DNA of 64,000 nt, from NCBI GenBank assembly GCA_964636235.1, contig CAZWQV010000002.1, forward strand, positions 37,607 to 101,606, given 5' to 3'. Both the position numbers and the translations under genes were made by a program. Below the pieces are notes generated by a model. The model was given only the letters and a program-made list of their open reading frames with translations, did no database searches and was not told the DNA's origin. This DNA is from an uncultured Thermoplasmatales archaeon (GTDB lineage: Archaea > Thermoplasmatota > E2 > DHVEG-1). Positions 465 to 53,213 of this stretch are shown here, piece after piece. Numbering within the stretch: the stretch's first letter is position 1; each line of letters opens with the position of its first letter.

Positions 465-1913
465 TCATATAGCTTGTTTTATTTTTCTTAATCGATTGAC
501 ATATAATTTTCCCCAAACAAATGTAATACTTGATCCAATTAAGTTTGCGATCACAAGTCCCCACCAGATTCCAGAGATTCCCATATTAAAAACAAATGTA
601 AATAATAAGCTCAGGGCAACAGTTAAAATGATAGTTCGTAGTAAGGTTGCGATAAGCGCATATAATCCTTTACCTGTTCCTTGAAACGTGGCTGATGTTA
701 CAATACCGAGTGCAGCTCCCGGATAAAATAAACAAGTGATTTTAAGAAATGTTAGCAGATACTCCTTCAATTGCACTGCATCTGCTGTAGAAGTAAATAC
801 TGAGGCGATATACGGTGCAAGAATAAATATTAAGATAGCACTTATGGTTTCAACAGCAAGACCTATTTTTGCTGCGTACATATATGCAGTATTTAATTTT
901 TCATATGATTTTGAACCATAGGCTGCACCTGTAACAGTTGTAACTGCTGTTGCCATACCAAGAAGGGGAAGAATGGAAACCATGACAACTCTCCATCCAG
1001 TGTTATATGCGGCAACACCGATTTCATTTCCATTCGTCATATTGATGATGATTATAATGATCAGCATGGTAAATGACATGGATAATTGTTGTATCGAAGC
1101 AGGCAATCCAACCCTGAAAATATCTTTTAAGATGTCTTTATTAAAAGAAAATGATTTAAATTTAAATGAAACGTATGTATCCTTTCGTAAAAATAGCCAA
1201 TAAACCAATACCATGGACGTAATAGCCATAGAAAGGATAGTTGCATATGCTGCACCTGCAAGTCCCATTTCAAATGTATAAATAAAAATCGGATCCAGAA
1301 TAATATTTAAACCTGCACCGAACATCATCGCATACATCGCTCTATTTGCATCACCTTCTGCTCGAAGGATAGAATAAGCAACTTGGTTGAAAAATAAAAA
1401 GATACTTCCTCCAAAGATTATTTTCCCATAAATTATTGCTAGACTAGCTGATTCTTTGGCTCCAATAGCGGTGAAAATATTTCCGCCGGTAAAAAAGAGG
1501 CTGATTGTAAATATAATTGCAATAATGACTATGAGGATAATGGAATGAATAGCAACATTGTCCGCTCCTGATTTATCTTTTCCTCCTATTCTTCTTGATA
1601 TGGCTGATCCTCCGCCAATGCCAATTCCAGTTGATATAGCAATAACCATCATGTAAAGAGGCATGACAAATCCAACTGCGGCTAATGCATTTGGTCCAAT
1701 TCCATCTACTATTTTATTGGTGAAAATATCCTGACCAAAACCAGAGACCCATAATGCGTCTACAAGATTGTATATGGTTTGTGCAGACATAGCCAATATC
1801 ATTGGAATGGAAAGTTTTATGATGGCTTTTTTTGGTCCACCGAGCAACAATTCAACGCCTTTTGTTTTCTTTGCTTTTAATGATTTTTTCTGTTCTGTTT
1901 GAATGTTACGCAC
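465..1913 (-). CDS. MATE family multidrug/oligosaccharidyl-lipid efflux transporter
   Basis: 482 aa with about 12 predicted TM helices and NorM/DinF-like sequence features throughout. Confidence 0.85.
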   Translation of the reverse strand: MRNIQTEQKKSLKAKKTKGVELLLGGPKKAIIKLSIPMILAMSAQTIYNLVDALWVSGFGQDIFTNKIVDGIGPNALAAVGFVMPLYMMVIAISTGIGIGGGSAISRRIGGKDKSGADNVAIHSIILIVIIAIIFTISLFFTGGNIFTAIGAKESASLAIIYGKIIFGGSIFLFFNQVAYSILRAEGDANRAMYAMMFGAGLNIILDPIFIYTFEMGLAGAAYATILSMAITSMVLVYWLFLRKDTYVSFKFKSFSFNKDILKDIFRVGLPASIQQLSMSFTMLIIIIIINMTNGNEIGVAAYNTGWRVVMVSILPLLGMATAVTTVTGAAYGSKSYEKLNTAYMYAAKIGLAVETISAILIFILAPYIASVFTSTADAVQLKEYLLTFLKITCLFYPGAALGIVTSATFQGTGKGLYALIATLLRTIILTVALSLLFTFVFNMGISGIWWGLVIANLIGSSITFVWGKLYVNRLRKIKQAI

Positions 1914-1918
1914 CCCGT

Positions 1919-2347
1919 TTAGATTAAATGTGTCGCGTTTTTTGAAATTCTTTCTAAGTATTCAAAGAACTGATCTTCCTCATTTTTAGAAAAACCGTTT
2001 AGTAATTGTCTTGAAGAATTCTTTAATATTGATCGTAATATTGGTTTTAATTCCATCGCTTTTTTTGTTAGATGTAGTTGATACGATCTTTTGTCTGAAG
2101 GATTTTTTTGACGTGTAACAAACCCATGGTCAATAAGTTTTTTTACCGCTCTTGCGCAAGTTGCTTTATCGATATTTATGATTTCAGCGAGTGTTTCTTG
2201 GTTAATCCCATCATTATTATATAGAATCATAATAAGATGTAATTGACCACTTCCAAGTTCATATTTTTCTAAATGGTGATGAAGATATGAATGGATGTTT
2301 CGATGGATACATGAAACTAATCGACCAACTGATTTTTGTTTTTTCAT
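1919..2347 (-). CDS. MarR family transcriptional regulator
   Basis: 142 aa winged-HTH protein; the MarR signature region runs from ETLAEI to GFV..Q..P.DKR..QLHLT. Confidence 0.8.
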   Translation of the reverse strand: MKKQKSVGRLVSCIHRNIHSYLHHHLEKYELGSGQLHLIMILYNNDGINQETLAEIINIDKATCARAVKKLIDHGFVTRQKNPSDKRSYQLHLTKKAMELKPILRSILKNSSRQLLNGFSKNEEDQFFEYLERISKNATHLI

Positions 2348-2506: not shown

Positions 2507-2722
2507 GTGTACGTTATGTCCGATGATAAAATAAATGCAGATATGAATATTAGAGAAGTATTAGAAAAATATCCTGAAACCGTTTCTGTATTTGCTAAAT
2601 ATAATATGGGTTGTGTTGGTTGTATCGCAGCATCTTTTGAAAAAATAAAAGATATCGCTGCGGTTCATGGAACTGATGTTGATTCCTTTGTGAAAGATTT
2701 AAATGCAGCAATCCAATCATAA
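2507..2722 (+). CDS. DUF1858-type small redox-disulfide protein (hybrid-cluster-protein-associated family)
   Basis: 71 aa with a C-V-G-C motif and family-like N-terminus (DMNIREVLEKYPET..VF). The track start is GTG at 2507; an ATG at 2516 is a likely alternative start. Confidence 0.5.
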   Translation: MYVMSDDKINADMNIREVLEKYPETVSVFAKYNMGCVGCIAASFEKIKDIAAVHGTDVDSFVKDLNAAIQS

Positions 2723-2727
2723 TTATT

Positions 2728-3141
2728 TTAAAATGAACTTGTTGTTATAACAAGTTCGCCATGTTTAATTCCTTTTAATGATTTTATCGAATCTGAAAGT
2801 TGTTGAATATTTTTTATTTTTCCCTCTAAAACAAGTACTTCAAGGCAATTATCATGATCAATATGGACGTGCGTCGTTGTGAGAATTTCATTCGTATGAT
2901 CATGCTGGATTTGTAATAATTTATTTGTTAAATTTCCGGTATGATGATCATAAACCATTGTAAGTGTACCAATTGCATTTTTGTTTATATCTTTTTGTTT
3001 TTCAACAATTAGATTTTTACGAATAAGATCCCTAATTGCTTCACTCCGATTTGCATATCCTTCTTTTTTAATTAATGCATCAAATTTTTTAAGCAGTTCT
3101 GGTTCAACACTTACCCCAAATCGAGTAATTCTATCCGCCAT
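2728..3141 (-). CDS. nikR: nickel-responsive transcriptional regulator NikR
   Basis: N-terminal ribbon-helix-helix (RFGVSVEPELLKKFDALIKKEGYANRSEAIRDLIR) followed by a C-terminal ACT-like domain with H/C-rich metal-site residues (HHTGN, HVHIDHDNC). Confidence 0.8.
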   Translation of the reverse strand: MADRITRFGVSVEPELLKKFDALIKKEGYANRSEAIRDLIRKNLIVEKQKDINKNAIGTLTMVYDHHTGNLTNKLLQIQHDHTNEILTTTHVHIDHDNCLEVLVLEGKIKNIQQLSDSIKSLKGIKHGELVITTSSF

Positions 3142-3142
3142 A

Positions 3143-3248
3143 GTAACACGATATCAATGTAAAGATAGCACGAATATAAATTTTTTGTTACCAAAAGAAT
3201 TAAAAATAAAAAAACTATCTGGTGTTACTAAAATAAAATTAATGTTAC
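3143..3248. promoter_or_regulatory. Divergent nikR / ABC-transporter promoter with four copies of the hexamer TGTTAC (one inverted); candidate NikR operator
   Basis: GTAACAC at 3143-3149 is the reverse complement of GTGTTAC at 3222-3228. Further GTTAC copies sit at 3187-3191 and 3244-3248. About 0.1 copies would be expected by chance in a 120-bp AT-rich spacer. An SD aaggag lies at 3250-3255. Confidence 0.35.
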
Positions 3249-3260
3249 GAAGGAGTATTT

Positions 3261-4352
3261 ATGCAAATAAGTAGATTTCGAATTAAAATATTCACTGTTG
3301 GATGTATTCTAGTTCTTTTATTTTTAAATACCGGCTGCGTACAGCAAGGAACAACTATTCAAGAAAATGCTGTTAAAATAACAGATATGCTTGGAAGGGT
3401 AGTTGCAATACCGGAAAATATAGACAACGTTGTTGGTATTGAAGCAGGCTCATTACGATTACTCGTTTACTTACAATGTACTGATATGGTTGTAGGAATT
3501 GAAGATATTGAATTGGACGGAGGAAAACCGTATAATTTCGCTCATCCTGAACTTACCGAACTTCCTCTTATTGGACCTATACATGGGGGCGATCAAGAAT
3601 TAATCATGAAACAAGGCCCTGATATTATCTTTTGGACGTATACAACTGTAGGAGAAGCAGATGAACTACAGGAAAAAACAGGTATCCCTGTTGTAGCTTT
3701 AATTTATGGGGATTTAGATGATAATTTAAACGTCCTTTTTGAATCTTTACGATTGATGGGTAGCATTTTGAACAAGGAAGATAGAGCAGAAGAACTGATT
3801 GAATATATAAACACCGTAATAACTGATTTAACAAATCGTACAATAAACATTTCAAATGATCAGAAACTAAAAACATATGTTGGTGGAATTTCCAGTAGAG
3901 GTGCTCATGGTATTTTATCAACAGAACCAGCATATGCACCTTTTTTATTTGTTAACTCAAAAAATGTTGCAAGTGAACTTGGAATGGAACATGCATTTAT
4001 TGACAAAGAAAAATTAATTGAATGGGACCCAGAAGTAATTTTTATAGATGAAGGTGGTTATTCATTAACGGTTGAGGATTTAAAAGATAATTCTTATCAA
4101 TCCATTGATGCCATAAAAGATGACAATATCTATGGAGTACTGCCCTATAATTATTATACAACAAATTTTGGAACAGTACTTGCTAATTCATATTATATTG
4201 GAAGTATTCTTTTCCCTGATGAATTCAAAGATATCATACCCGAAGAGAAAGCAGATGATATCTATCAGAAATTTGTTGGTAAATGCGTGTACGAGGATAT
4301 GAAAGCATTGTATGGAGGATTCAATAGTTTCGAATTAAACGATATAGATTAA
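3261..4352 (+). CDS. ABC transporter periplasmic-type substrate-binding lipoprotein (BtuF/FecB class, cluster A-2)
   Basis: Signal peptide plus lipobox-like LNTGC. Resembles the siderophore/cobalamin/heme-binding protein fold family and is first in an operon with a FecCD permease and an ATPase. Confidence 0.75.
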   Translation: MQISRFRIKIFTVGCILVLLFLNTGCVQQGTTIQENAVKITDMLGRVVAIPENIDNVVGIEAGSLRLLVYLQCTDMVVGIEDIELDGGKPYNFAHPELTELPLIGPIHGGDQELIMKQGPDIIFWTYTTVGEADELQEKTGIPVVALIYGDLDDNLNVLFESLRLMGSILNKEDRAEELIEYINTVITDLTNRTINISNDQKLKTYVGGISSRGAHGILSTEPAYAPFLFVNSKNVASELGMEHAFIDKEKLIEWDPEVIFIDEGGYSLTVEDLKDNSYQSIDAIKDDNIYGVLPYNYYTTNFGTVLANSYYIGSILFPDEFKDIIPEEKADDIYQKFVGKCVYEDMKALYGGFNSFELNDID

Positions 4353-4366
4353 GGATATTACCCATT

Positions 4367-5434
4367 ATGATAGATCATAAATATATATTAGATTCATACA
4401 AAAAACATACTCATAAAAAATTTCTCTTTCTTATTATCTCAATACTTATTTTGATTTTATTAGTTCTAATTTCTATTAGCATAGGTTCTTATCAAATTGA
4501 TATATTTAAGGTAATACATACAGTAATCTTTGGTGGAACGGACTCAATCGCAACAGTTATTTGGCAAATTCGAATTCCTCGAGTTTTAACAGCTATTGTA
4601 GGTGGAATGGGGCTAGCAATTTCAGGTGTAGCAATGCAGAGTATTTTAAGAAACCCTCTTGGATCACCTTTTACGCTGGGAATATCTCATACATCTGCAT
4701 TTGGTGCAGCTTTCTCAATAGTATTCCTTGGTGCAGGATCTATTCAAAGCAGTAGTGTTGATGCAGTTATTCAAAACAACCCATTTATTGTTACTATATG
4801 TGCATTTTTATTTTCATTATTAGCAACTATAATCATTATTGCTTTAGCAAAATATAAGGGTGCAACTCCCGAATCGATGATACTAACTGGTGTAGCATTA
4901 GGGTCACTGGCTTTAGCAGGAACAACTGCAATTGAATATTTTGCGGATGATATACAGCTTTCTTCTATTGTTTTTTGGACATTTGGTGATTTAGGAAGGA
5001 CTTCTTGGAATGAAGTTTTAATTATTACAGTTGTTGTGATTCCAGCAATTGCATATTTTTTTTATAATATATGGAATTACAATGCATTGCAAAGTGGAGA
5101 AGAATCTGCAAAAAGCCTTGGAACAAATATAGAAATGGTACGAATTGGTGGAATGCTGGTTGCATCGTTGGTAACTGCATTAATAGTATCCTTTGTAGGC
5201 ATTATTGGATTCATTGGACTTGTTGTTCCCCATATTGTTCGAAAGATTATAGGAGGAGATGCACGTTTTCTCTTACCCTCTTCATGCATTGTAGGTTCTA
5301 TATTGTTATTATCTTCGGATACCATAGCTAGAACAATTATATCGCCAGTCGTTTTACCGGTAGGTATTTTAACTTCATTTATCGGAGCACCGCTTTTTAT
5401 TTATTTAGTAGTAAGGGGGAGGAAATATTGGTGA
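4367..5434 (+). CDS. ABC transporter permease, FecCD/BtuC family
   Basis: 355 aa polytopic membrane protein with FecCD signature regions (RIPRVL.A...G..LA.SG..MQ). Confidence 0.85.
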   Translation: MIDHKYILDSYKKHTHKKFLFLIISILILILLVLISISIGSYQIDIFKVIHTVIFGGTDSIATVIWQIRIPRVLTAIVGGMGLAISGVAMQSILRNPLGSPFTLGISHTSAFGAAFSIVFLGAGSIQSSSVDAVIQNNPFIVTICAFLFSLLATIIIIALAKYKGATPESMILTGVALGSLALAGTTAIEYFADDIQLSSIVFWTFGDLGRTSWNEVLIITVVVIPAIAYFFYNIWNYNALQSGEESAKSLGTNIEMVRIGGMLVASLVTALIVSFVGIIGFIGLVVPHIVRKIIGGDARFLLPSSCIVGSILLLSSDTIARTIISPVVLPVGILTSFIGAPLFIYLVVRGRKYW

Positions 5435-6189
5435 TAATGCAACTAAAAAACGTATCGTTTAGTTATGATAAAAAATCAGTATTACATAATATTAATTTTA
5501 ATCTTAATGAAGGTGAGATTCTCGCGATAGTTGGTCCAAATGGTTCTGGCAAAAGCACTCTGTTAAAATGCATCGATCAGATTTTAAAACCACAAAAAGG
5601 AGTCATATTATTAGATCATCAAGATATCATGAAATTAAAACCTGAAGAAATAGCAAAAAAAATTGGTTACGTTCCCCAAAATAATGGGAGAAGCTTTCCT
5701 ACAACGGTATTTGATTCAATATTGATGGGAAGAAAACCGTATATTAAATGGGCTCCAACAAACAATGATTTGAAAAAAGTTACAAATGTGATTGAAAAGT
5801 TAAGAATACAGCATCTTGTTTTACGTGATATCAACGAATTAAGTGGTGGACAAAAACAAAAGGTGATTATTGGTAGGGCTCTGGCTCAGGAGCCAAAGAT
5901 ACTTTTATTAGATGAACCGACATCAAATTTAGATTTAAAACATCAATTAGAGGTTTTAAATTTAATAAAAGAACAAACAAAAGATAACGTATCAGCTGTT
6001 ATTGCAATACATGATTTGAATTTAGCATTACGATTTTGTGATAAAATTGTAATGTTACATAAAGGAAGGGTTTTTGCAGCAGGTGATTTAAATGTTCTTA
6101 CTGCTGAAAATATCGAAAAGGTTTACGATGTCAAGGTAAAAATAATTATGGAATCAGATAGGTTTTATGTTATTCCTGAAGAAAACTGA
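5428..6189 (+). CDS. ABC transporter ATP-binding protein (FecE/BtuD-like)
   Basis: Walker A GPNGSGKST, ABC signature LSGGQKQ, Walker B LLLDEPTS. Overlaps the permease gene by 7 nt, indicating an operon. Confidence 0.9.
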   Translation: MVIMQLKNVSFSYDKKSVLHNINFNLNEGEILAIVGPNGSGKSTLLKCIDQILKPQKGVILLDHQDIMKLKPEEIAKKIGYVPQNNGRSFPTTVFDSILMGRKPYIKWAPTNNDLKKVTNVIEKLRIQHLVLRDINELSGGQKQKVIIGRALAQEPKILLLDEPTSNLDLKHQLEVLNLIKEQTKDNVSAVIAIHDLNLALRFCDKIVMLHKGRVFAAGDLNVLTAENIEKVYDVKVKIIMESDRFYVIPEEN

Positions 6190-6200
6190 GGTAATGTAAA

Positions 6201-7310
6201 ATGGTTGAAATGAAACCGATTGGTGTAGTAAAAAATAAGTTTAATACTAAAACAGATCTCAATGATATTCGACAAAATGAAAGTATTATAGTTATTGATA
6301 AAGATTATGAAGAAGGACTTTTTCAGATTGATGGAATAGGTTACCTCCAAATAATTTTTAACTTTCATCTCAGTAAAAATCAACAATTGAAAGGACCAAT
6401 TTATAATGGAAAAGTGAAAGGTGTTTTCGCATCAAGAAGCCCTAAAAGACCAAATGGGATAGGAATTACAACTGTCCAGTTAATTGAAAGGAAAGGAAGA
6501 AAATTACGAGTAAAAGGACTCGATGCTTTAAATGGAACTCCTGTTCTAGATATAAAACCATATACACCTTTTTTAGATGAAAACAAGCAAATAGAATTCA
6601 TAGAAAATAATAAAAAATTGAATCCCCGATCAGATATACATAAATGGATTCTAAGAGAAAATTACCAACACTTATTATTGAATGCAGGTGAATTGCATGG
6701 GCATTATTGTCCTGGATTAAGTTTAGGGGTTCTTGCAGGTTCATATGCATTAAAAACAAAGAATTTTTTTTCTGATGGGATGGAAAAAGTAATTGCTATT
6801 GTAGAAACAAATAATTGCTTTAGCGATGGAATTCAATATGCTACGGGTTGTACTTTTGGAAATAATTCCTTAATATTTAGAGACTTTGGAAAAACAGCTG
6901 TTACGGTGTCAAAAAGAGATGGTAATGGATTAAGAATATCGGTAAAAAATAATGCAAATAACCTATGGCAAAAGAATCATCCAGAAGCAGAAGATCTCTT
7001 TCAAAAAGTGGTTACTGAACGAAAAGGTAATGATGAAGATACAAGGAATCTTATGAACCTATTTAAGCAAATCTCGTTTGAAATAATTGAATTTAATATT
7101 AATGATCTTTTTAATATAAAAAATGTAAAAATTAAAATCCCTGATTATGCTCCAATTCATGAGAATATATTATGTAGTAACTGTAAAGAGAATATTATGG
7201 GTTCAAGAGTAATTCATAAGGAATCAAAAAATCTATGCATCCCCTGTTCAAAATCAGAATTTTTTGAGTTGGATGGAAGTGGAATAAAAAAGCATTCTTC
7301 AATTGATTAA
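6201..7310 (+). CDS. Fusion protein: TsaA/YaeB (TrmO-like, UPF0066) N-domain + FmdE/FwdE-family domain + C-terminal CxxC...CxxC zinc ribbon
   Basis: The N-terminal 140 aa carry the TsaA signature (SRSPKRPNGIGITTVQLIERKG..L.V.GLDALNGTPVLDIKPY). The middle carries the FmdE signature HGHYCPGLSLG. The C-terminus has CSNC...CIPC. Confidence 0.65.
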   Translation: MVEMKPIGVVKNKFNTKTDLNDIRQNESIIVIDKDYEEGLFQIDGIGYLQIIFNFHLSKNQQLKGPIYNGKVKGVFASRSPKRPNGIGITTVQLIERKGRKLRVKGLDALNGTPVLDIKPYTPFLDENKQIEFIENNKKLNPRSDIHKWILRENYQHLLLNAGELHGHYCPGLSLGVLAGSYALKTKNFFSDGMEKVIAIVETNNCFSDGIQYATGCTFGNNSLIFRDFGKTAVTVSKRDGNGLRISVKNNANNLWQKNHPEAEDLFQKVVTERKGNDEDTRNLMNLFKQISFEIIEFNINDLFNIKNVKIKIPDYAPIHENILCSNCKENIMGSRVIHKESKNLCIPCSKSEFFELDGSGIKKHSSID

Positions 7311-7325
7311 CTATGATAATTAATA

Positions 7326-8048
7326 TTACCATTCAGCTAACTCGCCAATAATAATCCTCAATAATGGCGGGATAGAGCCTTCGGTTTTACCACAACCATA
7401 ACCAATACGCTCAATATGCATAGGTGGCATAGATTGAAATCGATCAGCAATAGTTGATATAACTGCAGCACCAGTTGGTGTTACTAATTCTTGCATTCTA
7501 TCTGTTTGATAGACTGGTACATTTTTTAATAGTTCAATGGTTGCGGGGGCTGGAATAGGAATGACGCCATGAGAACACTTGATAAATCCTGTTCCAAGAG
7601 GAAGTGGAGAACAATAGATGTGGTCAATACCAAGTTTTTTAATACCGATTACTGAGCCAACAATATCAATAATAGAATCAATTGCTCCGACTTCATGAAA
7701 ATGTACTTGTTCATAATCGATATTATGTATTTTTCCTTCTACCTTTGCTAGTTTTAAAAAAATTTTTTGACTTAGCTTTTTAATTTCCTCATCAAGACCA
7801 CTTTCTTGTATCATTTCTTTAATTTCTTGATAGCTTCGATGAGGCTGTTTTTCTATGACTGCAATCTTTACATCTTTTGCTTTGATATGATTTTTTTCAA
7901 TATCATTTACTTCAATATTATATCCTGAAATAGCAAGCTTTTTGATTTCATTTTTAAAATAAGTTACATCAAGACCTAGATCAAAAAGAGCACCAAGGAT
8001 CATATCACCACATATGCCAGAAAAACAATCAAAAAATGCAACTGTCAA
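7326..8048 (-). CDS. larC: LarC family nickel-insertion protein, N-terminal (LarC1) domain only
   Basis: 240 aa matching the N-terminal half of lactate-racemase nickel-pincer maturation protein LarC (FDCFSGICGDMILGAL, HFHEVGAIDSI.DIVG, PAPAT.ELL). The C-terminal CTP-binding half is not present here. Confidence 0.75.
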   Translation of the reverse strand: MTVAFFDCFSGICGDMILGALFDLGLDVTYFKNEIKKLAISGYNIEVNDIEKNHIKAKDVKIAVIEKQPHRSYQEIKEMIQESGLDEEIKKLSQKIFLKLAKVEGKIHNIDYEQVHFHEVGAIDSIIDIVGSVIGIKKLGIDHIYCSPLPLGTGFIKCSHGVIPIPAPATIELLKNVPVYQTDRMQELVTPTGAAVISTIADRFQSMPPMHIERIGYGCGKTEGSIPPLLRIIIGELAEW

Positions 8049-8054
8049 ATTTTA

Positions 8055-8828
8055 TCACCTGTTTATAATACTTGCAAAATATCCAGCACCAAAACCATTA
8101 TCAATATTTACTACAACCACACCTTCAGCACAACTATTAAGCATGGTAAGAAGTGGTGCAATACCTTTAAAACTTGCGCCGTATCCGATGCTTGTTGGAA
8201 CAGCGATTACAGGCGTTGATGTAAGACCACCGACCAAACTTGCAAGTGCTCCTTCCATACCTGCAATGACAATGATGACATTTGCATCAAATATTTTCTC
8301 TTTTATATCAAATAATCGATGAACACCTGCCACTCCGACATCATATGATTTTTCAACACAATTTCCCATGATTTCTGCTGTTACTGTTGCTTCTTCAGCA
8401 ACAGGGATATCTGATGTTCCAGCGGTAATAATGAGGATTTTACCTGGTTTTTTCTTTTTCTTTTTGTTTTCAATTACTATTGTTTTTGCCAGTTCATTAT
8501 ACTGGGCATATGGAAATTTCTTTACAACTTTTTCAAAAATAGTTTTATTTGCTTTTGTTGCAAGAATATTTTGATCTGGATCAAATGATTCAATGATTTT
8601 AATGATCTGATCTATTGTTTTTCCTTTACAAAAAATGGTTTCAGGAAATCCTTTCCGAAGTGCTCTATGGGTGTCAATTTTTACAAAATCTAAATCTTTA
8701 TATGGAAGCGTTTTTATTTTCGATAAAACCTTTTCTAAACTGATTTTCCCTTCTTTGAATTCCTGTAGTATCTTTTCCATTTTATAAAACCTCATCAAGG
8801 CTTCCAGATCGATATCCTTCGATATCAA
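8055..8828 (-). CDS. larB: LarB (PurE-like nickel-pincer nucleotide carboxylase/hydrolase)
   Basis: AIR-carboxylase-like fold motifs (IITAGTSD.PVAEEA, GVAGVHRL, VIAGMEGALAS.VGGL, GYGAS). Lies between larC and larE on the same strand. Confidence 0.75.
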   Translation of the reverse strand: MISKDIDLEALMRFYKMEKILQEFKEGKISLEKVLSKIKTLPYKDLDFVKIDTHRALRKGFPETIFCKGKTIDQIIKIIESFDPDQNILATKANKTIFEKVVKKFPYAQYNELAKTIVIENKKKKKKPGKILIITAGTSDIPVAEEATVTAEIMGNCVEKSYDVGVAGVHRLFDIKEKIFDANVIIVIAGMEGALASLVGGLTSTPVIAVPTSIGYGASFKGIAPLLTMLNSCAEGVVVVNIDNGFGAGYFASIINR

Positions 8829-9585
8829 TGGTAATATATTTGAATCCTAATTTTTTGAATGACTTAATTATATTATCAGCTGATGATAGAATTTTTTTCA
8901 TATCATCTTTTTTCACTTCTATTCGAGCTATTTCATGATGATATCTTACTCTAGATTGCTTTATTCCCAATGAATACAATACATTTTCTGCCTTTTCAAT
9001 TTGATTTAGGATATCTTCTGATATTCTAGTATTGTATGGTATTCTTGTTGCTAAACAAGGATTTGCAGGTTTGTCCCATGTTGATAAATGAAACTGTTTT
9101 GAAAGAGATCTGATGTCCTGCTTTGTTAAATTTGCTTGAACCAATGGACTTAATATCCCTAATTCTTTTAAAGCTTTTAAACCCGGGCGATACTGGTCTA
9201 AATCATCCAAGTTGCTACCCTCCAAAACTGATGAAATATTATGGGATTTGACAAAGTCTATTATTGTTGAGAACATGTATTTTTTACAATGATAACATCT
9301 ATCTGAAGGGTTTTCATAAAATCTTTTCATTTTTGTCATATCGATTTTTAATAGATGATGTGGAATTGAAAAAGAATTAGCAATTAATTTTGCTTCATTT
9401 ATTTCTTTCTTGGAATGAGCAGATGTTTGAAGAGTAACGGCAATGCAATTATTGCCAAGGACCTTCGATGTAATCTTTAATAGAAATGTACTGTCTACAC
9501 CTCCTGAAAAGGCAACTACTGCTGTTTTAAGTTTTTTAATGTTGTTTTCCAATATATCAATTTTATCTTGTAACTCTTTGTCCAC
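8782..9585 (-). CDS. larE: LarE (ATP-dependent sulfur transferase, PP-loop ATPase)
   Basis: PP-loop motif VAFSGGVDSTFLL and the conserved sacrificial-cysteine motif ANPCLATRIPY. Confidence 0.8.
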   Translation of the reverse strand: MDKELQDKIDILENNIKKLKTAVVAFSGGVDSTFLLKITSKVLGNNCIAVTLQTSAHSKKEINEAKLIANSFSIPHHLLKIDMTKMKRFYENPSDRCYHCKKYMFSTIIDFVKSHNISSVLEGSNLDDLDQYRPGLKALKELGILSPLVQANLTKQDIRSLSKQFHLSTWDKPANPCLATRIPYNTRISEDILNQIEKAENVLYSLGIKQSRVRYHHEIARIEVKKDDMKKILSSADNIIKSFKKLGFKYITIDIEGYRSGSLDEVL

Positions 9586-9632
9586 ACTAATTAAAAAATG
9601 ATTTATTATATATAAATTTGCTATTGACCTAG

Positions 9633-10496
9633 TTATTGTTTAATTTGTGATTCTACGTATTCTGCGCCAGAAGAAGTTAACTCTAAAGTATCATCGGATA
9701 CATATTTGATCATTTCCATGTTTGACAGTTTTTTTATCATTTGGATGAGTTCTTCTTTTGACACTTTTAATATACGGATTGCAGTATCAGCATCCATATC
9801 CTGCTTATGCATCAATTCGAGAAGATTATATTCTTTCTCGAAAATTTTTGTTTTTTTCTGAAGAGATTCCGGGTCATCAGATATTTCACCTGATAAAGTT
9901 TCAACATAATTTTGAATGATGCTATCTAAATTTAATCGATCTAATACATTTCCTTTATCATCGTATAGGGTACAAAATTTACTACCTTCCTCATGTTGCC
10001 ATGAGGAAACTTTTTTCCAGTTATAACCTAATTTATTTTCCCCAGGGCTGCCATCTTTTTTCTTTTTCTTTTTTAATCTTCGTTCAAAAACATGATGCTG
10101 TTCAAGCTGTATCTGATCCAGGTCAATACCATTATTTTCTATGTCCTGTGTTAATTGTTTACCAAATTTTTCTTTCAGTTCAGTGATAAAATAGAGTCCT
10201 GCTTCCTCATTAAGTTCATCATAAACCATTCTAATAAGTGATTCAATACAGCGAACAATGCGTTGTTTATCGATCTTATTTATGATATCTGAATGAATTA
10301 GGATTATTTTTTCTTTATCATCTGTTTGATGGTTTGTAAACGTGACATCCTTTAAGAACTCATATTTAGTTGAAAGGCTGAGCAAACAAGCTTTTATAGT
10401 ATCATCTGCGAATCTCTCGGATGTTCTTCTTCCAGCTACTTTATAAACAGATTGAATTGCTGTTTTCATCAGTTCTGAATTCTTTTTATTAACCAT
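9633..10496 (-). CDS. Uncharacterised two-domain protein: N-terminal unknown domain + C-terminal winged-HTH (paralog of 29839..30663)
   Basis: Shares AGRRTS..FA, GLYF..E.KE..GK, ENGIDL, LD.LNLD..I, EYELL and a C-terminal wHTH-like segment with the protein at 29839..30663. Confidence 0.4.
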   Translation of the reverse strand: MVNKKNSELMKTAIQSVYKVAGRRTSERFADDTIKACLLSLSTKYEFLKDVTFTNHQTDDKEKIILIHSDIINKIDKQRIVRCIESLIRMVYDELNEEAGLYFITELKEKFGKQLTQDIENNGIDLDQIQLEQHHVFERRLKKKKKKDGSPGENKLGYNWKKVSSWQHEEGSKFCTLYDDKGNVLDRLNLDSIIQNYVETLSGEISDDPESLQKKTKIFEKEYNLLELMHKQDMDADTAIRILKVSKEELIQMIKKLSNMEMIKYVSDDTLELTSSGAEYVESQIKQ

Positions 10497-10960
10497 CTTC
10501 CTTCACAGACGCTTCAAGGTTAATTGGCTCTTATAATATAATATCGTAGGTTTTTTTAAAAGTTTACTAATTTTTATGAATTATATCGTATTAATAAATA
10601 TTTTGTAAATGATGTATTTTATTAAATTACTAATAAAATTCCTAATAGATATCATTATATATATTATAACGAATAATTTTATAGTTATTTATTTTTATTT
10701 AACAAATATGGGCCATGTAGTTAGAGAGAGATACTCTATAACATCAAACCGACTCTTTGTTAAACCGTTGAATTGATCATCTCATTATATAAAATTTTTA
10801 TATATGGGTGATATCTGTTGAAATATATATGCTATATAGAATAGCCTTATAAATCCATAGTCATTAAAACCTCACATGAGGATTTGCTTTTAAAAGAGGG
10901 GAATACCATTTTTATTTCATCGCATCCTCTTTCTCCTCTCCAGTTCTAATTAAATAAATG

Positions 10961-11428
10961 TTAAAGCTTGTGTTTTTCAAAATAATCTTGATGGTATCCT
11001 TCAGCAGGATAAAAGGTAGATGCGGGCATTATTTCTGTTACAATTTTTTTATCGTAATTGCCTGATTTTTCAAGAAGCTTTAATGATTTTTCAGCGATTT
11101 GTTTTTGTTCATTTGTAGAATAATAAATAACAGAACGATATTGATAACCAATATCAACTCCTTGTCCATCAGATTGAGTTGGATTGTGTATCTTCCAAAA
11201 GATATCAAGCAGATCTGCAAAAGAAATTATAGTAGGATCATAGAGAATTTGTACTACTTCTGCATGACCAGTTTTACTAGAACAAACATCCTTATAGGTA
11301 GGATTTTTCATGTTTCCACCCATATAACCGACTGTTGTTTCGATAACACCAGGTTCATGTTTAAATGCTTCCTCAACCCCCCAAAAACATCCTGCGCCAA
11401 AAGTAATTTTTTCAACCATATGCTTCAC
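10961..11428 (-). CDS. msrA: peptide methionine sulfoxide reductase MsrA
   Basis: Active-site motif FGAGCFWGVE and family-typical length of 155 aa. Confidence 0.9.
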   Translation of the reverse strand: MKHMVEKITFGAGCFWGVEEAFKHEPGVIETTVGYMGGNMKNPTYKDVCSSKTGHAEVVQILYDPTIISFADLLDIFWKIHNPTQSDGQGVDIGYQYRSVIYYSTNEQKQIAEKSLKLLEKSGNYDKKIVTEIMPASTFYPAEGYHQDYFEKHKL

Positions 11429-18977: not shown

Positions 18978-19388
18978 TTGCTTACCATTTTGGAGGTGTT
19001 ATATATTTCAGATCTTGTAACAGTCAGTGATGCAAGTTGGAATGAGATTGTTATTGAATCAAAAAAACCAGTTTTTGTGATGTTTTATAGCCCCACCTGT
19101 CCTCATTGCCAAAATATTAAGCCGTTTGTTGAAAAATATGCAGAAGAATTTGAAAAAGAGGTACTTTTTGCACAATTAAATGTTGCAGAAAATCAGATCA
19201 TTGCTTCAAATTATAGTGTGATGGGCACGCCTACTTTTTTATTCTTTTGTAAAGGAAAACCTGTTAATAGTATTGTTGGAGCAGTCTATCCTGCCTTATT
19301 GAAAAAAACAATTGAGGATGGCATTCAATTTGGTGAAGATTGCAGATCAAAGACAACCTGGATTGATCCAAATACAGGTTATGCATAA
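18978..19388 (+). CDS. trx: thioredoxin
   Basis: Active site YSPTCPHCQ, thioredoxin fold and length. TTG start as given by the track; the true start may lie a few codons downstream (GTG). Confidence 0.8.
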   Translation: MLTILEVLYISDLVTVSDASWNEIVIESKKPVFVMFYSPTCPHCQNIKPFVEKYAEEFEKEVLFAQLNVAENQIIASNYSVMGTPTFLFFCKGKPVNSIVGAVYPALLKKTIEDGIQFGEDCRSKTTWIDPNTGYA

Positions 19389-49999: not shown

Positions 50000-50446
50000 T
50001 TATTCTAAACGCTTAATTAAAGAAAATTCTTCATTTTTAAAAATTTCAATTAATTTTAATGCGTTTTTTTTTACTATTCTTGTCATATCTCCATCCATCT
50101 TTTGTGGTTGAATTCCAATAATTGCTATTTTTGAGATATATTGAGAAAGATAATTAACAAAAACTGACAGAGGTATGCCATGAGTACTTACGTGCATTAA
50201 TCCTATTTTTTCCTTGGGAACAATCCTAATTTCACCAGGATTCAGATTCATATCAATAGCATCAATTAAATATAATATATCTGGTTTTTTTTGTTTAATA
50301 ACTCCGGTATAATTTTCAAGATACGTTTCAACATTGAGAACTTCAATATCATTTAATTTTATATTGCCTAGTTCATCAGCAATGAATGGCCCAACTGCGT
50401 CATCGCCCCCATCTCGATTACCAATACAAACAAGTAAATATTTCAA
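50000..50446 (-). CDS. hycI: [NiFe]-hydrogenase maturation endopeptidase (HycI/HyaD family)
   Basis: Motif LLVCIGNRDGGDDAVG and a 148-aa length typical of HycI. Confidence 0.7.
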   Translation of the reverse strand: MKYLLVCIGNRDGGDDAVGPFIADELGNIKLNDIEVLNVETYLENYTGVIKQKKPDILYLIDAIDMNLNPGEIRIVPKEKIGLMHVSTHGIPLSVFVNYLSQYISKIAIIGIQPQKMDGDMTRIVKKNALKLIEIFKNEEFSLIKRLE

Positions 50447-50612
50447 TGTGAAACCTCAGGAAATGTATTATGTAGAATCGCTATAAAATTTAATAATTTT
50501 CTCTAAAAAACCATCTTTTCACATTCTCGTTGTTTTCCACAACATTTTAATACTTTTTAGGATTACCAATGAACCAAATTTATTAGATATATACTACCGG
50601 AGGTACTCTTCA

Positions 50613-51047
50613 ATGTCCAAAGGACTTCCTAAAGCCTTTAAAAAAGCACTATGGGTTTATCACATAAACTCTGGATCCTGTAATGGATGTGATATTGAAA
50701 TCATTGCTGCTCTCTGTCCGAGATATGATGCAGAAAGATTTGGTATTAAACTTGTTGGATCCCCACGTCACGCAGATGTTTTACTTGTTACTGGGCCGGT
50801 TACTCGGCAATTGGTTGAAAAAGTTAAACGTGCATATGAGCAGATGCCCGATCCAAAAGCAGTTCTCTGCGTTGGGAATTGTGGTAATACCGGAGATGTG
50901 TTTTATGAAGCATATAACCTTGTTGGACCAATTGATAACGTTCTTCCTGTCGATGTTTATGTTATTGGATGTCCCCCACGACCTGAGAATATTATAATGG
51001 GTGTTGTAAAAGCCTGGACAAAACTTGAAACATTGGAGGCGAAATAA
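50613..51047 (+). CDS. group 4 [NiFe]-hydrogenase small subunit (NuoB/HycG/MbhJ-like)
   Basis: Four conserved Cys (CNGC, GNCG, GCPPRP) of the proximal [4Fe-4S] cluster. 144 aa. Confidence 0.8.
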   Translation: MSKGLPKAFKKALWVYHINSGSCNGCDIEIIAALCPRYDAERFGIKLVGSPRHADVLLVTGPVTRQLVEKVKRAYEQMPDPKAVLCVGNCGNTGDVFYEAYNLVGPIDNVLPVDVYVIGCPPRPENIIMGVVKAWTKLETLEAK

Positions 51048-51589
51048 TGGCTTCTAAAAACATTTTAACACCTGATGAAATAGTCAAATCGTTTAAAGAT
51101 GCTTTTTCAAAGGATATTATAGATGCTCGAGTGGAAAAGCATGTTAGAGGTTTGAAAAAAAATGAGTTCTTTCACATCTGGCTAAAGATTGATAAAAAGA
51201 TTTATCATGATGTGGTTGAACATCTTTTTACTTTCGAAAAACATCCTCATTTTGCCGTTTCTTCAGGATATGACCTTGGAAAAACAATTGAAATTGTACA
51301 TCATTTTTCATTGTATTCTGGCGAAAAATTAAGAGAAATTTCGATAAATATCACAACTCCTCTTCCAAAAACAGATCTTACTATTGATACGATAACTGAT
51401 CTTATTCCTGGTGCATTAATTGCAGAACAAGAAAAACAAGAAATGCTTGGAATAAAGGTCGTTGGCATTCCAAAAGATGAACGAGTATTCATCCCTAATG
51501 AGTTTCCTGAAGGAATGTATCCATGGAGAAGAGATGAAAAAAACGCTGATAAAATGGTTCGGAATTTACATGATGAGGTGAAAAAATGA
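51047..51589 (+). CDS. NuoC/HycE-N-terminal-like subunit (MbhK-like)
   Basis: 30-kDa-subunit-like fold. Translationally coupled to its neighbours (ATG overlaps the upstream stop). Confidence 0.65.
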   Translation: MASKNILTPDEIVKSFKDAFSKDIIDARVEKHVRGLKKNEFFHIWLKIDKKIYHDVVEHLFTFEKHPHFAVSSGYDLGKTIEIVHHFSLYSGEKLREISINITTPLPKTDLTIDTITDLIPGALIAEQEKQEMLGIKVVGIPKDERVFIPNEFPEGMYPWRRDEKNADKMVRNLHDEVKK

Positions 51590-52815
51590 CCACAAAAACT
51601 ATGAAAACTTCATATCAAATACCAATTGGCCCTATTCATCCAGCACTGAAGGAACCTGTGAAATTTAATTTTGAAATTGAAGGAGAAAAAATTGTTGATG
51701 TTGGGGTTGAGCTAGGACATGTTCACCGATCAATTGAATGGGCAGGAACTCGTAGGAATCCTGTTCAAATTTTATATCTTGCAGAACGTATATGTGGTAT
51801 TTGTTCCTATTGCCATCCGATGGCGTTTGCTCTCGCAAGTGAAAGAGTTGCTGGAATAGATGTTCCAGAACGTGCTCAATATCTTCGGGTTGTTCATCAA
51901 GAACTTGAACGTATCTGTTCTCATGTATTATGGGCTGGTGTTGCCGCTCATGAACTTGGCTTTGATACTGTTTTATTTTTAACATGGCAGATTCGAGAAG
52001 CTGCTCTTGATCTCACAGAATATCTCTGTGGAAACAGAGTCACAAAAGCAATCACTCAAATTGGTGGTGTCCGTAGAGACATCACAGCAGATATGCTTCC
52101 GACGATTAATAAATCATTAGATGCTGTGAAAGCGAATTGGGAGAAATTACGAAAAATATATCTTGAAGATAAAACGTTTAAACTTCGTAGTCAAGGATGC
52201 GGGGTGTTAACAAAAGAAGATGCTTTGAAACTCTGTGCTGTTGGTCCTACGACTCGTGCCTCGGGAGTAAAAAAAGATGTCCGTATTGACCAACCTTATT
52301 TTGCATTTGGTGATCTTGATTTTGATTATATGACCCCTGATATTGTAACTGGAGAAGTCAATGGTGATGTGTATGATAGAATCATTGTCCGTTTACTCGA
52401 GGTAAAACAATCAGTTGAATTGATTGAAGAAGCAATTAAAAATATGCCCGAAGGAGAGATTTTGGCAGAACCAAAAGTTGCAAAAATCCTAAATATTATG
52501 AAAAAAGCTGAAGGCGAAGGAATCGGTAGAATGGAAGCACCACGTGGAGAAGTATTTCACTATGTGAAATATGTTGGCGAACCCTCACCGTATTCATGGA
52601 AGGTTCGAGCACCAACTTATTCTAATATTTTACCTTGGATACCAATGCTGATGGGTGAACAAATCGCAGATATTCCTATTGTTGCTGCATCAACAGATCC
52701 TTGTATGAGTTGTACAAATCGCGTGGGTATAGTTGAAAAAAATCATTCATATGAATTAACTGGTGAAGATTTGCATAGAATGTGTGTGGAAAAGACAAGG
52801 AGGCTTATGAAATGA
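51586..52815 (+). CDS. group 4 [NiFe]-hydrogenase large subunit (NuoD/HycE/MbhL-like) with intact Ni-binding motifs
   Basis: N-terminal RICGICSYCH (L1: RxCGxCxxxH) and C-terminal DPCMSCTNR (L2: DPCxxCxxR). Confidence 0.85.
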   Translation: MTTKTMKTSYQIPIGPIHPALKEPVKFNFEIEGEKIVDVGVELGHVHRSIEWAGTRRNPVQILYLAERICGICSYCHPMAFALASERVAGIDVPERAQYLRVVHQELERICSHVLWAGVAAHELGFDTVLFLTWQIREAALDLTEYLCGNRVTKAITQIGGVRRDITADMLPTINKSLDAVKANWEKLRKIYLEDKTFKLRSQGCGVLTKEDALKLCAVGPTTRASGVKKDVRIDQPYFAFGDLDFDYMTPDIVTGEVNGDVYDRIIVRLLEVKQSVELIEEAIKNMPEGEILAEPKVAKILNIMKKAEGEGIGRMEAPRGEVFHYVKYVGEPSPYSWKVRAPTYSNILPWIPMLMGEQIADIPIVAASTDPCMSCTNRVGIVEKNHSYELTGEDLHRMCVEKTRRLMK

Positions 52816-53213
52816 AACTGGTCATGATACCAAAAGCATTTACTCAAATGTTTAAAAAACCATTTACCAATAAATTTCCAGCAAAATATGCACCAGGAAA
52901 TGTCAGTGGTTTTTTAAAAGCCGTTGGTGAAGGAAAAGCATCTATTAATCCACCAGTGAAAACCCCTCCGAATTTTCGAGGGAAAATAACCTATAACAAA
53001 GAAACCTGTATCGGATGCAAGCTTTGCATTAAGGTATGCCCAACAGAAGCAATTGAGTTCAAGGAAGATGAAAAGAAAATAAAAATATATCTGTCCCGTT
53101 GTTGTTTCTGTGCTCAGTGTAATGAGATTTGTCCAAAAGATTGCCTTGCAATGAGTGATGAATTTTTACTAGTGGATACTGATAAATATTCGAAGGATTT
53201 AATTGTAGAATAA
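52812..53213 (+). CDS. 2x[4Fe-4S] ferredoxin subunit (NuoI/HycF/MbhN-like)
   Basis: CIGCKLCIKVCP and CCFCAQCNEICP motifs. ATG at 52812 overlaps the large-subunit stop. Confidence 0.7.
   Translation: MKLVMIPKAFTQMFKKPFTNKFPAKYAPGNVSGFLKAVGEGKASINPPVKTPPNFRGKITYNKETCIGCKLCIKVCPTEAIEFKEDEKKIKIYLSRCCFCAQCNEICPKDCLAMSDEFLLVDTDKYSKDLIVE

Follow-up and report, generated by a model that had tools for sequence, protein, structure and literature searches.

We analysed a 64,000-nucleotide stretch of a contig from an uncultured Thermoplasmatales archaeon (the window, with a G+C content of about 31%), in which a nikR gene is transcribed divergently from an operon encoding an ATP-binding cassette (ABC) importer and a TrmO_N-FmdE fusion protein. 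The domain calls rest on a list of the open reading frames (ORFs) of the window and on Pfam and NCBIfam scans of the window proteins (Table 1). The plus-strand operon has the order binding protein, permease, ATPase and TrmO_N-FmdE, and larC1, larB and larE converge on it from the minus strand. The binding-protein and permease genes are separated by a 14-bp gap, and the permease and ATPase genes overlap. Because only a single permease gene is present, the permease is presumed to act as a homodimer. A previous interpretation made from the letters alone (the sequence-only reading) had given every one of these genes its place and strand, with nikR divergent from the importer, and had put a TsaA-FmdE fusion after the ATPase gene, followed by larE-larB-larC(N) on the opposite strand. 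The ORFs and the Pfam and NCBIfam domain scans agreed with this layout throughout.

Table 1. Features of the nikR-transporter-lar block and related features. Positions refer to the window unless another locus is named.
Feature	Position	Strand	Remarks
nikR, nickel-responsive ribbon-helix-helix repressor, 137 amino acids	2728-3141	-	N-terminal RHH_1 (PF01402) and C-terminal ACT-like NikR_C (PF08753); NF003381 182 bits (cutoff 105)
Divergent promoter/operator spacer, 119 bp	3142-3260		Between nikR and the binding-protein gene; five NikR-type half-sites
Half-site GTAACAC	3143-3149		In spacer
Half-site ATAGCAC	3165-3171		In spacer
Half-site TTGTTAC	3185-3191		In spacer
Half-site GTGTTAC	3222-3228		In spacer
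Half-site ATGTTAC	3242-3248		In spacer
Class-III binding protein, probable lipoprotein (Cys26), 'IGPIHGG' subtype	3261-4352	+	Peripla_BP_2 (PF01497)
FecCD/BtuC-type permease, 355 amino acids	4367-5434	+	FecCD (PF01032) 298 bits, profile 1-311 of 311
ABC ATPase, 250-253 amino acids	5428-6189 (public gene calls: start 5437)	+	ABC_tran (PF00005) 128 bits
TrmO_N-FmdE fusion with C-terminal Cys4 zinc ribbon, 369 amino acids	6201-7310	+	TrmO_N 24-126, FmdE 165-304 (Pfam)
larC1, His-rich nickel-insertion half of LarC, 240 amino acids	7326-8048	-	Ni_insertion profile 2-235 of 375; TIGR00299.2 218 bits
larB	8055-8828 (public gene calls: 8055-8780)	-	LarB carboxylase/hydrolase; NF033503 293 bits (cutoff 175)
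larE, PP-loop SGGVDS and CXXC...C	8782-9585	-	LarE sulfur transferase; TIGR00268 318 bits (cutoff 150)
ORF of 287 amino acids, no Pfam or NCBIfam match	9633-10496	-	Downstream of larE; conservation limited to the close relative L004 (489 bits)
HycI maturation protease gene	50000-50446		Divergent from and adjoining the hydrogenase module
SAM-dependent transferase gene, example locus L070	12964-14067
SAM-dependent transferase gene, example locus L054	10255-11300
SAM-dependent transferase gene, example locus L034	3650-4300
SAM-dependent transferase gene, example locus L063	9125-9571
DUF134/NifX/Mrp neighbour set, L013	13076-17135		Also in further loci
DUF134/NifX/Mrp neighbour set, L023	14011-19500
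DUF134/NifX/Mrp neighbour set, L045	1375-3900

The arrangement of the block is not accidental. Copies of the locus, identical or 72% identical, were found only on metagenomic contigs, which carry genes for eRF1, archease, diphthamide synthase and archaeal pilins. The entire block is retained in the relative L004/L005, whose binding protein is 72% identical to that of the window, and the core consisting of nikR, the transporter and FmdE recurs across phyla. For the wider comparison, an alignment of binding-protein homologues was scanned against 185,579 species genomes, one per prokaryotic species, and 479 relatives of the binding protein were found. The best 80 loci, together with the 72% relative L004, made up 81 non-redundant loci, in which ORFs were called and then searched with the window proteins. 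We counted FmdE in the 58 loci that are complete on both sides, and nikR within 1.5 kb upstream in the 67 loci with enough upstream sequence. Of the 58 complete loci, 52 include FmdE in the module. It is encoded either by its own gene, immediately upstream of that for the binding protein, or, in 15 loci, by a TrmO_N-FmdE fusion gene that directly follows the ATPase gene. The sequence-only reading was right in placing the fusion gene directly downstream of the importer, but it missed that this protein is the most constant partner of the transporter. The nikR gene is adjacent in 25 of the 67 loci, and these 25 belong to Thermoplasmatota, Hadarchaeota, Bipolaricaulota, Thermotogae, Aenigmatarchaeota, Woesearchaeota and Bacillota.

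The closest relative of the window NikR with a solved structure is NikR of P. horikoshii (PhNikR; 2BJ1, E 5e-38). Its ligand motif 'IQH...THVHIDHDNC' can be aligned with 'LQH...LHVHMDEHNC' of PhNikR and 'IQH...THIHMDEHNC' of HpNikR, with the pattern QH...HxH...C preserved. We take this pattern to be the square-planar nickel site H76'/H87/H89/C95 in the numbering of E. coli NikR (EcNikR), and, as judged from the alignment, the window NikR keeps all four canonical nickel-ligand positions. The DNA signal recognised by NikR, GTGTTAC-[N13/14]-GTAACAC plus the reversed form, was derived by Rodionov et al. in 2004 (PMC545781). We scanned 300 bp around each operon start for both forms of the box, allowing up to two mismatches. 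Such a box was found in 28 of 68 upstream regions, compared with an expectation of about 0.25, whether estimated from 1,359 random windows taken in these loci or from 1,360 shuffles, which corresponds to an enrichment of about 100-fold. Perfect matches occur in two regions (L020 and L028), and the half-site derived from the whole family is GTARCAC(GA), most commonly with a 13-bp spacer. Half of the boxed regions (14 of 28) belong to loci without an adjacent nikR gene, indicating that the box marks the transporter operon itself.

The recurrence of nikR and of its box bears on the public annotation of the importer as an 'iron complex transport system'. According to this annotation, the importer would be an ordinary one for iron chelates, heme or corrinoids, and its adjacency to nikR would be a coincidence. 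The transporter proteins indeed resemble the FhuD, SstD, IsdE, BtuC and FecD models of NCBIfam at the family level, and the iron-binding YiuA is among the structural neighbours of the binding protein. These matches are, however, all far under the equivalog cutoffs, and the matches of the ATPase to heme-, corrinoid- and FecE-type ATPase models of NCBIfam are likewise under theirs, so that no equivalog model is reached. Furthermore, nikR is adjacent in at least seven phyla, the enriched NikR boxes include those at loci without nikR, and no cobalamin (B12) riboswitch was found in the window or in nine bacterial loci. We consider a coincidental association of NikR with an iron, heme or corrinoid importer very unlikely.

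The divergent spacer of the window itself is dense in half-sites (Table 1). Exact TGTTAC/GTAACA hexamers occur four times in the 119-bp spacer, where about 0.065 would be expected, and 35 times in the whole 64 kb. When the spacer was aligned with that of L004, all five half-sites stood out as conserved blocks, and the sequence between them varied. The best inverted pair is ATAGCAC-N13-TTGTTAC (3165-3191). Two promoter-proximal half-sites are located 13-39 bp upstream of the ATG of the binding-protein gene, and their position suggests that a repressor bound there would block the archaeal promoter. Elsewhere in the window, only two box matches with up to two mismatches were found, at 18996 and 38432, which were not counted as regulon members.

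The most constant partner of the transporter, FmdE, is represented in the window by the C-terminal part of the fusion protein (PF02663, 118 bits), which has the FmdE core with its HGHxC...C metal site and the C-terminal zinc ribbon. The residues H166, H168, C170, C206, C325, C328, C346 and C349 are each preserved in 56 of 57 FmdE proteins of the modules. C217 is preserved in 55 of 57 and, together with the cysteines of the metal site and the ribbon, accounts for all cysteines of the window fusion protein. Its relatives in the PDB are 2NV4, the closest for the TrmO_N part, 2GVI and 3D00. In the FmdE protein of D. hafniense, the equivalent His2Cys2 site is solvent-exposed and contained mixed Zn/Ni in the crystal, mainly zinc, and most PF02663 genes adjoin genes for metal-ion transporters (PMC2954224).

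The occupancy of this site would also fit an importer for another divalent cation such as zinc or cobalt, or one of broad range; that metal would then be the signal for the NikR homologue, with FmdE acting as a zinc chaperone. Likewise, Methanothermobacter has a NikR homologue encoded next to ZnuABC for which a response to zinc was proposed (PMC3087415). The window NikR, on the other hand, retains the exact square-planar nickel-ligand set of EcNikR, HpNikR and PhNikR, the operator equals the box of the nickel regulon (PMC545781), and the link to the Lar genes is nickel-specific. For cobalt, a B12 riboswitch would be expected in bacteria, and none was found in the window or the nine bacterial loci. 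An importer for a cation other than nickel thus appears unlikely.

The N-terminal part of the fusion protein matches PF01980 (TrmO_N) with 100.8 bits and TIGR00104 with 107.5 bits (cutoff 93.25). Genuine TrmO is a tRNA m6t6A37 methyltransferase with its own C-terminal domain, found in a stand-alone tRNA-modifying context. Compared with TrmO, the fusion protein has the TrmO_N barrel, which binds S-adenosylmethionine (SAM), but FmdE replaces the C-terminal half, and the gene lies in a transporter operon. Genes for SAM-dependent transferases occur inside or beside many of the operons and belong to three unrelated folds, which are mostly mutually exclusive. TrmO_N occurs in 22 loci, as a fusion or on its own, Methyltransf_2 in 9 loci, where its gene often separates those of the binding protein and the permease, and Methyltransf_11 in 8 loci. 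This interchange of folds suggests that a SAM-dependent step belongs to the transporter system.

To characterise the binding protein, we modelled it with AF2 using 31 homologues. The model has a predicted local distance difference test (pLDDT) score of 91.3 and consists of two alpha/beta lobes connected by a single long helix (residues 173-194). All Foldseek matches to the model in the PDB are class-III proteins. The Pfam match, the model and the Foldseek search are in line with the sequence-only reading, which had assigned the importer to the BtuF/FecB-fold class-III ABC systems. The closest solved structure is TM0189 of T. maritima (2ETV; 46% identity, TM score 0.85-0.90, root-mean-square deviation 1.5-1.7 Å), which has no known ligand. 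The molybdate/tungstate-binding MolA (HI1472, 3PSA) has 22% identity and a TM score of 0.67-0.73, and YiuA, which binds Fe or an Fe-chelate, has about 19% identity and a TM score of 0.60-0.70. CeuE/NiuB of H. pylori (HpCeuE) in complex with nickel-histidine (4LS3) appears at rank 30, with 18% identity and a TM score of 0.60-0.70, and it was not found by phmmer with the window binding protein at E <= 1. Judging from these comparisons, homology places the pocket of the binding protein in no known ligand class. The sequence-only reading had grouped CeuE and NikZ as a single type of binder, which we do not follow, as NikZ is a NikA/OppA-type binding protein.

MolA is nevertheless the closest functionally characterised homologue (E 7e-20 in the sequence search), which raises the alternative that the system is a molybdate or tungstate importer of the MolABC type. 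FmdE would then be a factor related to molybdenum or tungsten, as its name, taken from the operon of the molybdenum formylmethanofuran dehydrogenase, might imply, and NifX-like Nitro_FeMo-Co genes near the module in 6 loci could be seen in the same light. However, the importer adjoins the gene for NikR and has a NikR box as its operator, and no ModE-type family is found among the recurrent neighbours of the module. The His2Cys2 site of FmdE is a cation site occupied by Zn/Ni (PMC2954224), and neither the window region nor the related modules contain fmd/fwd catalytic-subunit genes. Furthermore, the only cofactor genes interleaved with the module are the nickel-dependent Lar genes of L049 (described below). 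We regard transport of molybdate or tungstate as highly improbable.

The binding-protein family is divided into subtypes. We aligned 82 binding proteins and regarded a protein as NikR-linked if its locus contains a nikR gene or its operon is preceded by a box. The combination of His108, which lies in the loop 'IGPIHGG', with His244 occurs in 40 of 41 NikR-linked proteins versus 25 of 41 unlinked ones (Fisher p = 5e-5, a value that is only indicative because the loci are not phylogenetically independent). The NikR linkage is essentially confined to this GPxHGG/H244 subtype, to which the window protein belongs. The proteins without His108/His244 have four other loop subtypes with essentially no NikR linkage: 'GPGGPGKLPD', shared by TM0189, 'GxGGPxPVPH' of Archaeoglobales, 'GGK-TG' of Methanomicrobiales and 'GEYRGN' of Methanosarcinales. 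The two histidines are in loops at the C-terminal ends of beta-strands, where the cleft of class-III proteins forms, which makes them candidate nickel ligands, with a placement taken solely from the topology.

The lar genes next to the operon had led the sequence-only reading to propose an importer dedicated to the Lar cofactor, that is, one that feeds LarC and is functionally tied to larE-larB-larC1. The genes are indeed physically adjacent in the window, in L004/L005 and in L007, which is from a metagenome-assembled genome (MAG) with the label Clostridia and has a binding protein 63% identical to that of the window. In L049 (Halanaerobiales, contig positions 1-5293), the transporter is even interleaved with lar genes on one strand, in the order larB-gntR-binding protein-permease-ATPase-larE-larC, with a regulator of the GntR/FCD type and without FmdE. 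L049 is an independent recruitment of the transporter family to a lar cluster. However, these three groups (the window clade with L004, L007 and L049) are the only ones among the 81 loci with Lar genes near the module, a distribution that largely refutes the dedication to Lar; it is FmdE and NikR that constantly accompany the transporter. The lar genes of the window converge on the operon and are not cotranscribed with it, and no NikR box with up to three mismatches was found upstream of them (9500-11000 scanned).

The composition of the Lar gene set in the window points in the same direction. No LarA domain was found in any window ORF of at least 340 amino acids, in agreement with the sequence-only reading, which had noted the lack of larA. 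That reading also called larC(N) correctly but did not point out that the CTP-binding LarC2 half is lost. The window LarC consists of LarC1 only, and no LarC2 domain was detected anywhere in the window by phmmer with full-length LarC. LarC of L004 is also short (225 amino acids), and that of L007 is full-length (405 amino acids). According to a cryo-electron microscopy study from 2026, complete LarC comprises the nickel-binding LarC1 and the CTP-binding LarC2, and LarC2 and the interdomain linker are required for activity (PMC13510736). Hence, the pathway is incomplete unless the genome has a separate LarC2 gene outside the window. The CXXC...C motif of the window LarE reads RCYHC...NPC. In T. 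maritima, LarE with CXXC...C has been described as [4Fe-4S]-dependent and non-sacrificial (PMC9283937), and from this motif we read the window LarE as probably of the [4Fe-4S] type, although the matching NCBIfam model is titled 'sacrificial sulfur transferase'.

The window also contains a group-4 membrane-type [NiFe]-hydrogenase module at 50613-53213, with Oxidored_q6, Complex1_30kDa, large-subunit and Fer4 genes. The large subunit has the motifs RICGICSYCH and DPCMSC, and the gene for the maturation protease HycI adjoins the module (Table 1). No NikR box precedes the module (50000-53213). As this hydrogenase needs nickel too, the nickel consumers of the cell are not limited to Lar. With the distribution among the loci, the arrangement of the lar genes and this additional consumer, a dedication of the importer to Lar is improbable.

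Other neighbours of the module are listed here as separate observations. Directly upstream of nikR, the window contains a MatE efflux gene (465-1913, minus strand), a MarR regulator gene (1919-2347, minus strand) and a gene for a DUF1858/hybrid-cluster-protein-associated redox-disulfide protein (2507-2722, plus strand), and this MatE-MarR-DUF1858 order is also preserved in L004. A set of neighbours that recurs in several phyla comprises DUF134, NifX-like Nitro_FeMo-Co, a Mrp/NUBPL ATPase, a MinD-type ATPase with Fer4 and a small metallo-beta-lactamase-fold protein (Table 1), and a short-chain dehydrogenase neighbour recurs in 14 loci. In L020, an Eubacteriales MAG, the region some 6 kb upstream of the transporter contains a group II intron domain (RF02003, 96 bits; 3852-3993, minus strand).

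Taken together, we think it rather likely, on the basis of the sequence comparisons, that the module is a NikR-repressed type-II ABC nickel importer, with the FmdE protein as a cytoplasmic acceptor or processor of the metal, which serves nickel enzymes generally. The gene identities, the synteny, the operator enrichment and the conserved residues are direct observations. The synteny across phyla, the number of boxes found and the intact nickel ligands of NikR argue that the importer is under probable NikR control and probably carries nickel. Of the earlier proposal, therefore, the NikR-linked nickel uptake stands as probable, and the dedication to Lar does not. The family to which the module belongs is uncharacterised and widespread among anaerobic archaea and bacteria, and we do not regard the module as a Lar-specific device.

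In the mechanism that we propose, NikR would bind the GTARCAC-type half-sites of the 119-bp spacer when cytoplasmic Ni(II) is sufficient, and both nikR and the transporter-TrmO-FmdE operon would be switched off. When nickel is scarce, the lipid-anchored class-III protein would capture nickel, probably in the form of a small chelate; His108 and His244 are the candidate nickel ligands. As expected from the family membership, the binding protein would dock on the FecCD homodimer, and transport would be powered by the ATPase. In the cytoplasm, one may speculate that the exposed His2Cys2 site of FmdE accepts the metal or detaches it from the carrier, and that the fused SAM-binding TrmO_N domain performs an unspecified SAM-dependent step. 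The imported nickel would then supply all nickel enzymes of the cell, including the neighbouring Lar maturases and the [NiFe]-hydrogenase of the window. A more far-reaching version, which we find doubtful though worth stating, is an undescribed nickel-acquisition pathway of anaerobes, in which an organic nickel complex would enter via the GPxHGG protein and the nickel would be released or handed on in the cytoplasm by the FmdE metalloprotein and the SAM-dependent transferase.

Several points weigh against nickel import under NikR control. About 40% of the family loci have neither a nikR gene nor a box, and the locus statistics treat phylogenetically related loci as independent. The window spacer contains no perfect canonical NikR palindrome, as its best inverted pair has three mismatches to the consensus; the evidence is therefore taken from the clustering of half-sites, their conservation and the family-wide enrichment. 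The NikR homologue next to ZnuABC, mentioned above, provides an example of a NikR-like protein that may respond to zinc. The nearest characterised homologues of the binding protein, MolA and YiuA, bind other ligands, and TM0189, the nearest solved structure, is without a known ligand and of a different loop subtype. We infer the substrate, the repression by NikR, the role of His108/His244 and the functions of FmdE and TrmO_N from the observations above.

Anaerobes have a large need for nickel in hydrogenases, CO dehydrogenase/acetyl-CoA synthase, F430 and nickel-pincer enzymes. A NikR-controlled class-III system in hundreds of species would be a fourth major nickel route and would correct the annotation 'iron complex transport'. 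The His108/His244 signature would distinguish probable nickel binders from TM0189-like relatives. The module also suggests testable roles for two orphan families, FmdE outside the Fmd operon and archaeal TrmO_N/UPF0066 proteins. If the SAM-coupled pathway were true, it would provide the first function for these non-Fmd FmdE and archaeal UPF0066/TrmO_N proteins and a SAM-dependent step in nickel trafficking. For the Lar field, the loci reveal that another type of transporter has been recruited to lar clusters, and they provide a natural example of a split LarC1.

A class-III nickel importer was previously described in gastric Helicobacter, where the promoter of NiuBDE (CeuE/FecDE) is a NikR target and nickel is reportedly taken up as a histidine complex (PMC5140060). 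With this precedent, the sequence-only reading overstated its case in calling a class-III nickel ABC importer atypical. Like NiuBDE, the window system combines a Peripla_BP_2 class-III binding protein, a FecCD-type permease and an ATPase with a link to NikR. Unlike NiuBDE, which is confined to Helicobacter and has neither an FmdE nor a SAM-transferase partner, the window module has both partners, and its binding protein is only distantly related to NiuB/CeuE and not orthologous (18% identity). TM0189 (2ETV), a structural-genomics entry annotated as 'putative Fe(III) ABC transporter', is a member of the family but carries the loop 'GPGGPGKLPD' where the window protein has 'GPIHGGDQE', and the former subtype is not NikR-linked; our literature search found no paper on TM0189. 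MolABC of Haemophilus influenzae (HI1470-1472) is likewise a type-II importer with a class-III binding protein. However, MolA is not orthologous (22% identity) and binds an oxyanion, whereas the window system has NikR, a NikR box and the cation-binding FmdE.

A nickel importer beside Lar maturase genes also has a counterpart. Lar(MN)QO is an energy-coupling factor (ECF)-type nickel transporter within the lar cluster of Lactiplantibacillus plantarum. The window locus resembles it in having a nickel importer beside larB/C/E, and L049 follows the same logic with the present transporter. The difference is that Lar(MN)QO is of the ECF type and the window transporter is a binding-protein-dependent type-II ABC system, in whose family the lar linkage is exceptional. 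The FmdE part of the window fusion has the same domain as FmdE/FwdE proteins (PF02663; 2GLZ, 2GVI, 3D00), with the HGHxC...C site and the C-terminal treble-clef Cys4 ribbon. FmdE/FwdE proteins are encoded in formylmethanofuran dehydrogenase operons, whereas the window protein is a fusion with TrmO_N whose gene belongs to a transporter operon and has no fmd/fwd neighbours. In view of NiuBDE and Lar(MN)QO, the concept is not new. A census from 2009 listed only NikABCDE, Nik/CbiMNQO and NiCoT as nickel routes in archaea, and the same group defined NikR regulons (PMC2667541). Apart from one unrelated co-mention, our literature search found no paper joining NikR with FmdE in such a context. Within the literature searched, three aspects are new: the different, widespread binding-protein family of anaerobic archaea and bacteria, which may have been predicted earlier; its constant association with FmdE and its frequent one with SAM-dependent transferases; and the sequence signature that sets the NikR-linked subtype apart.

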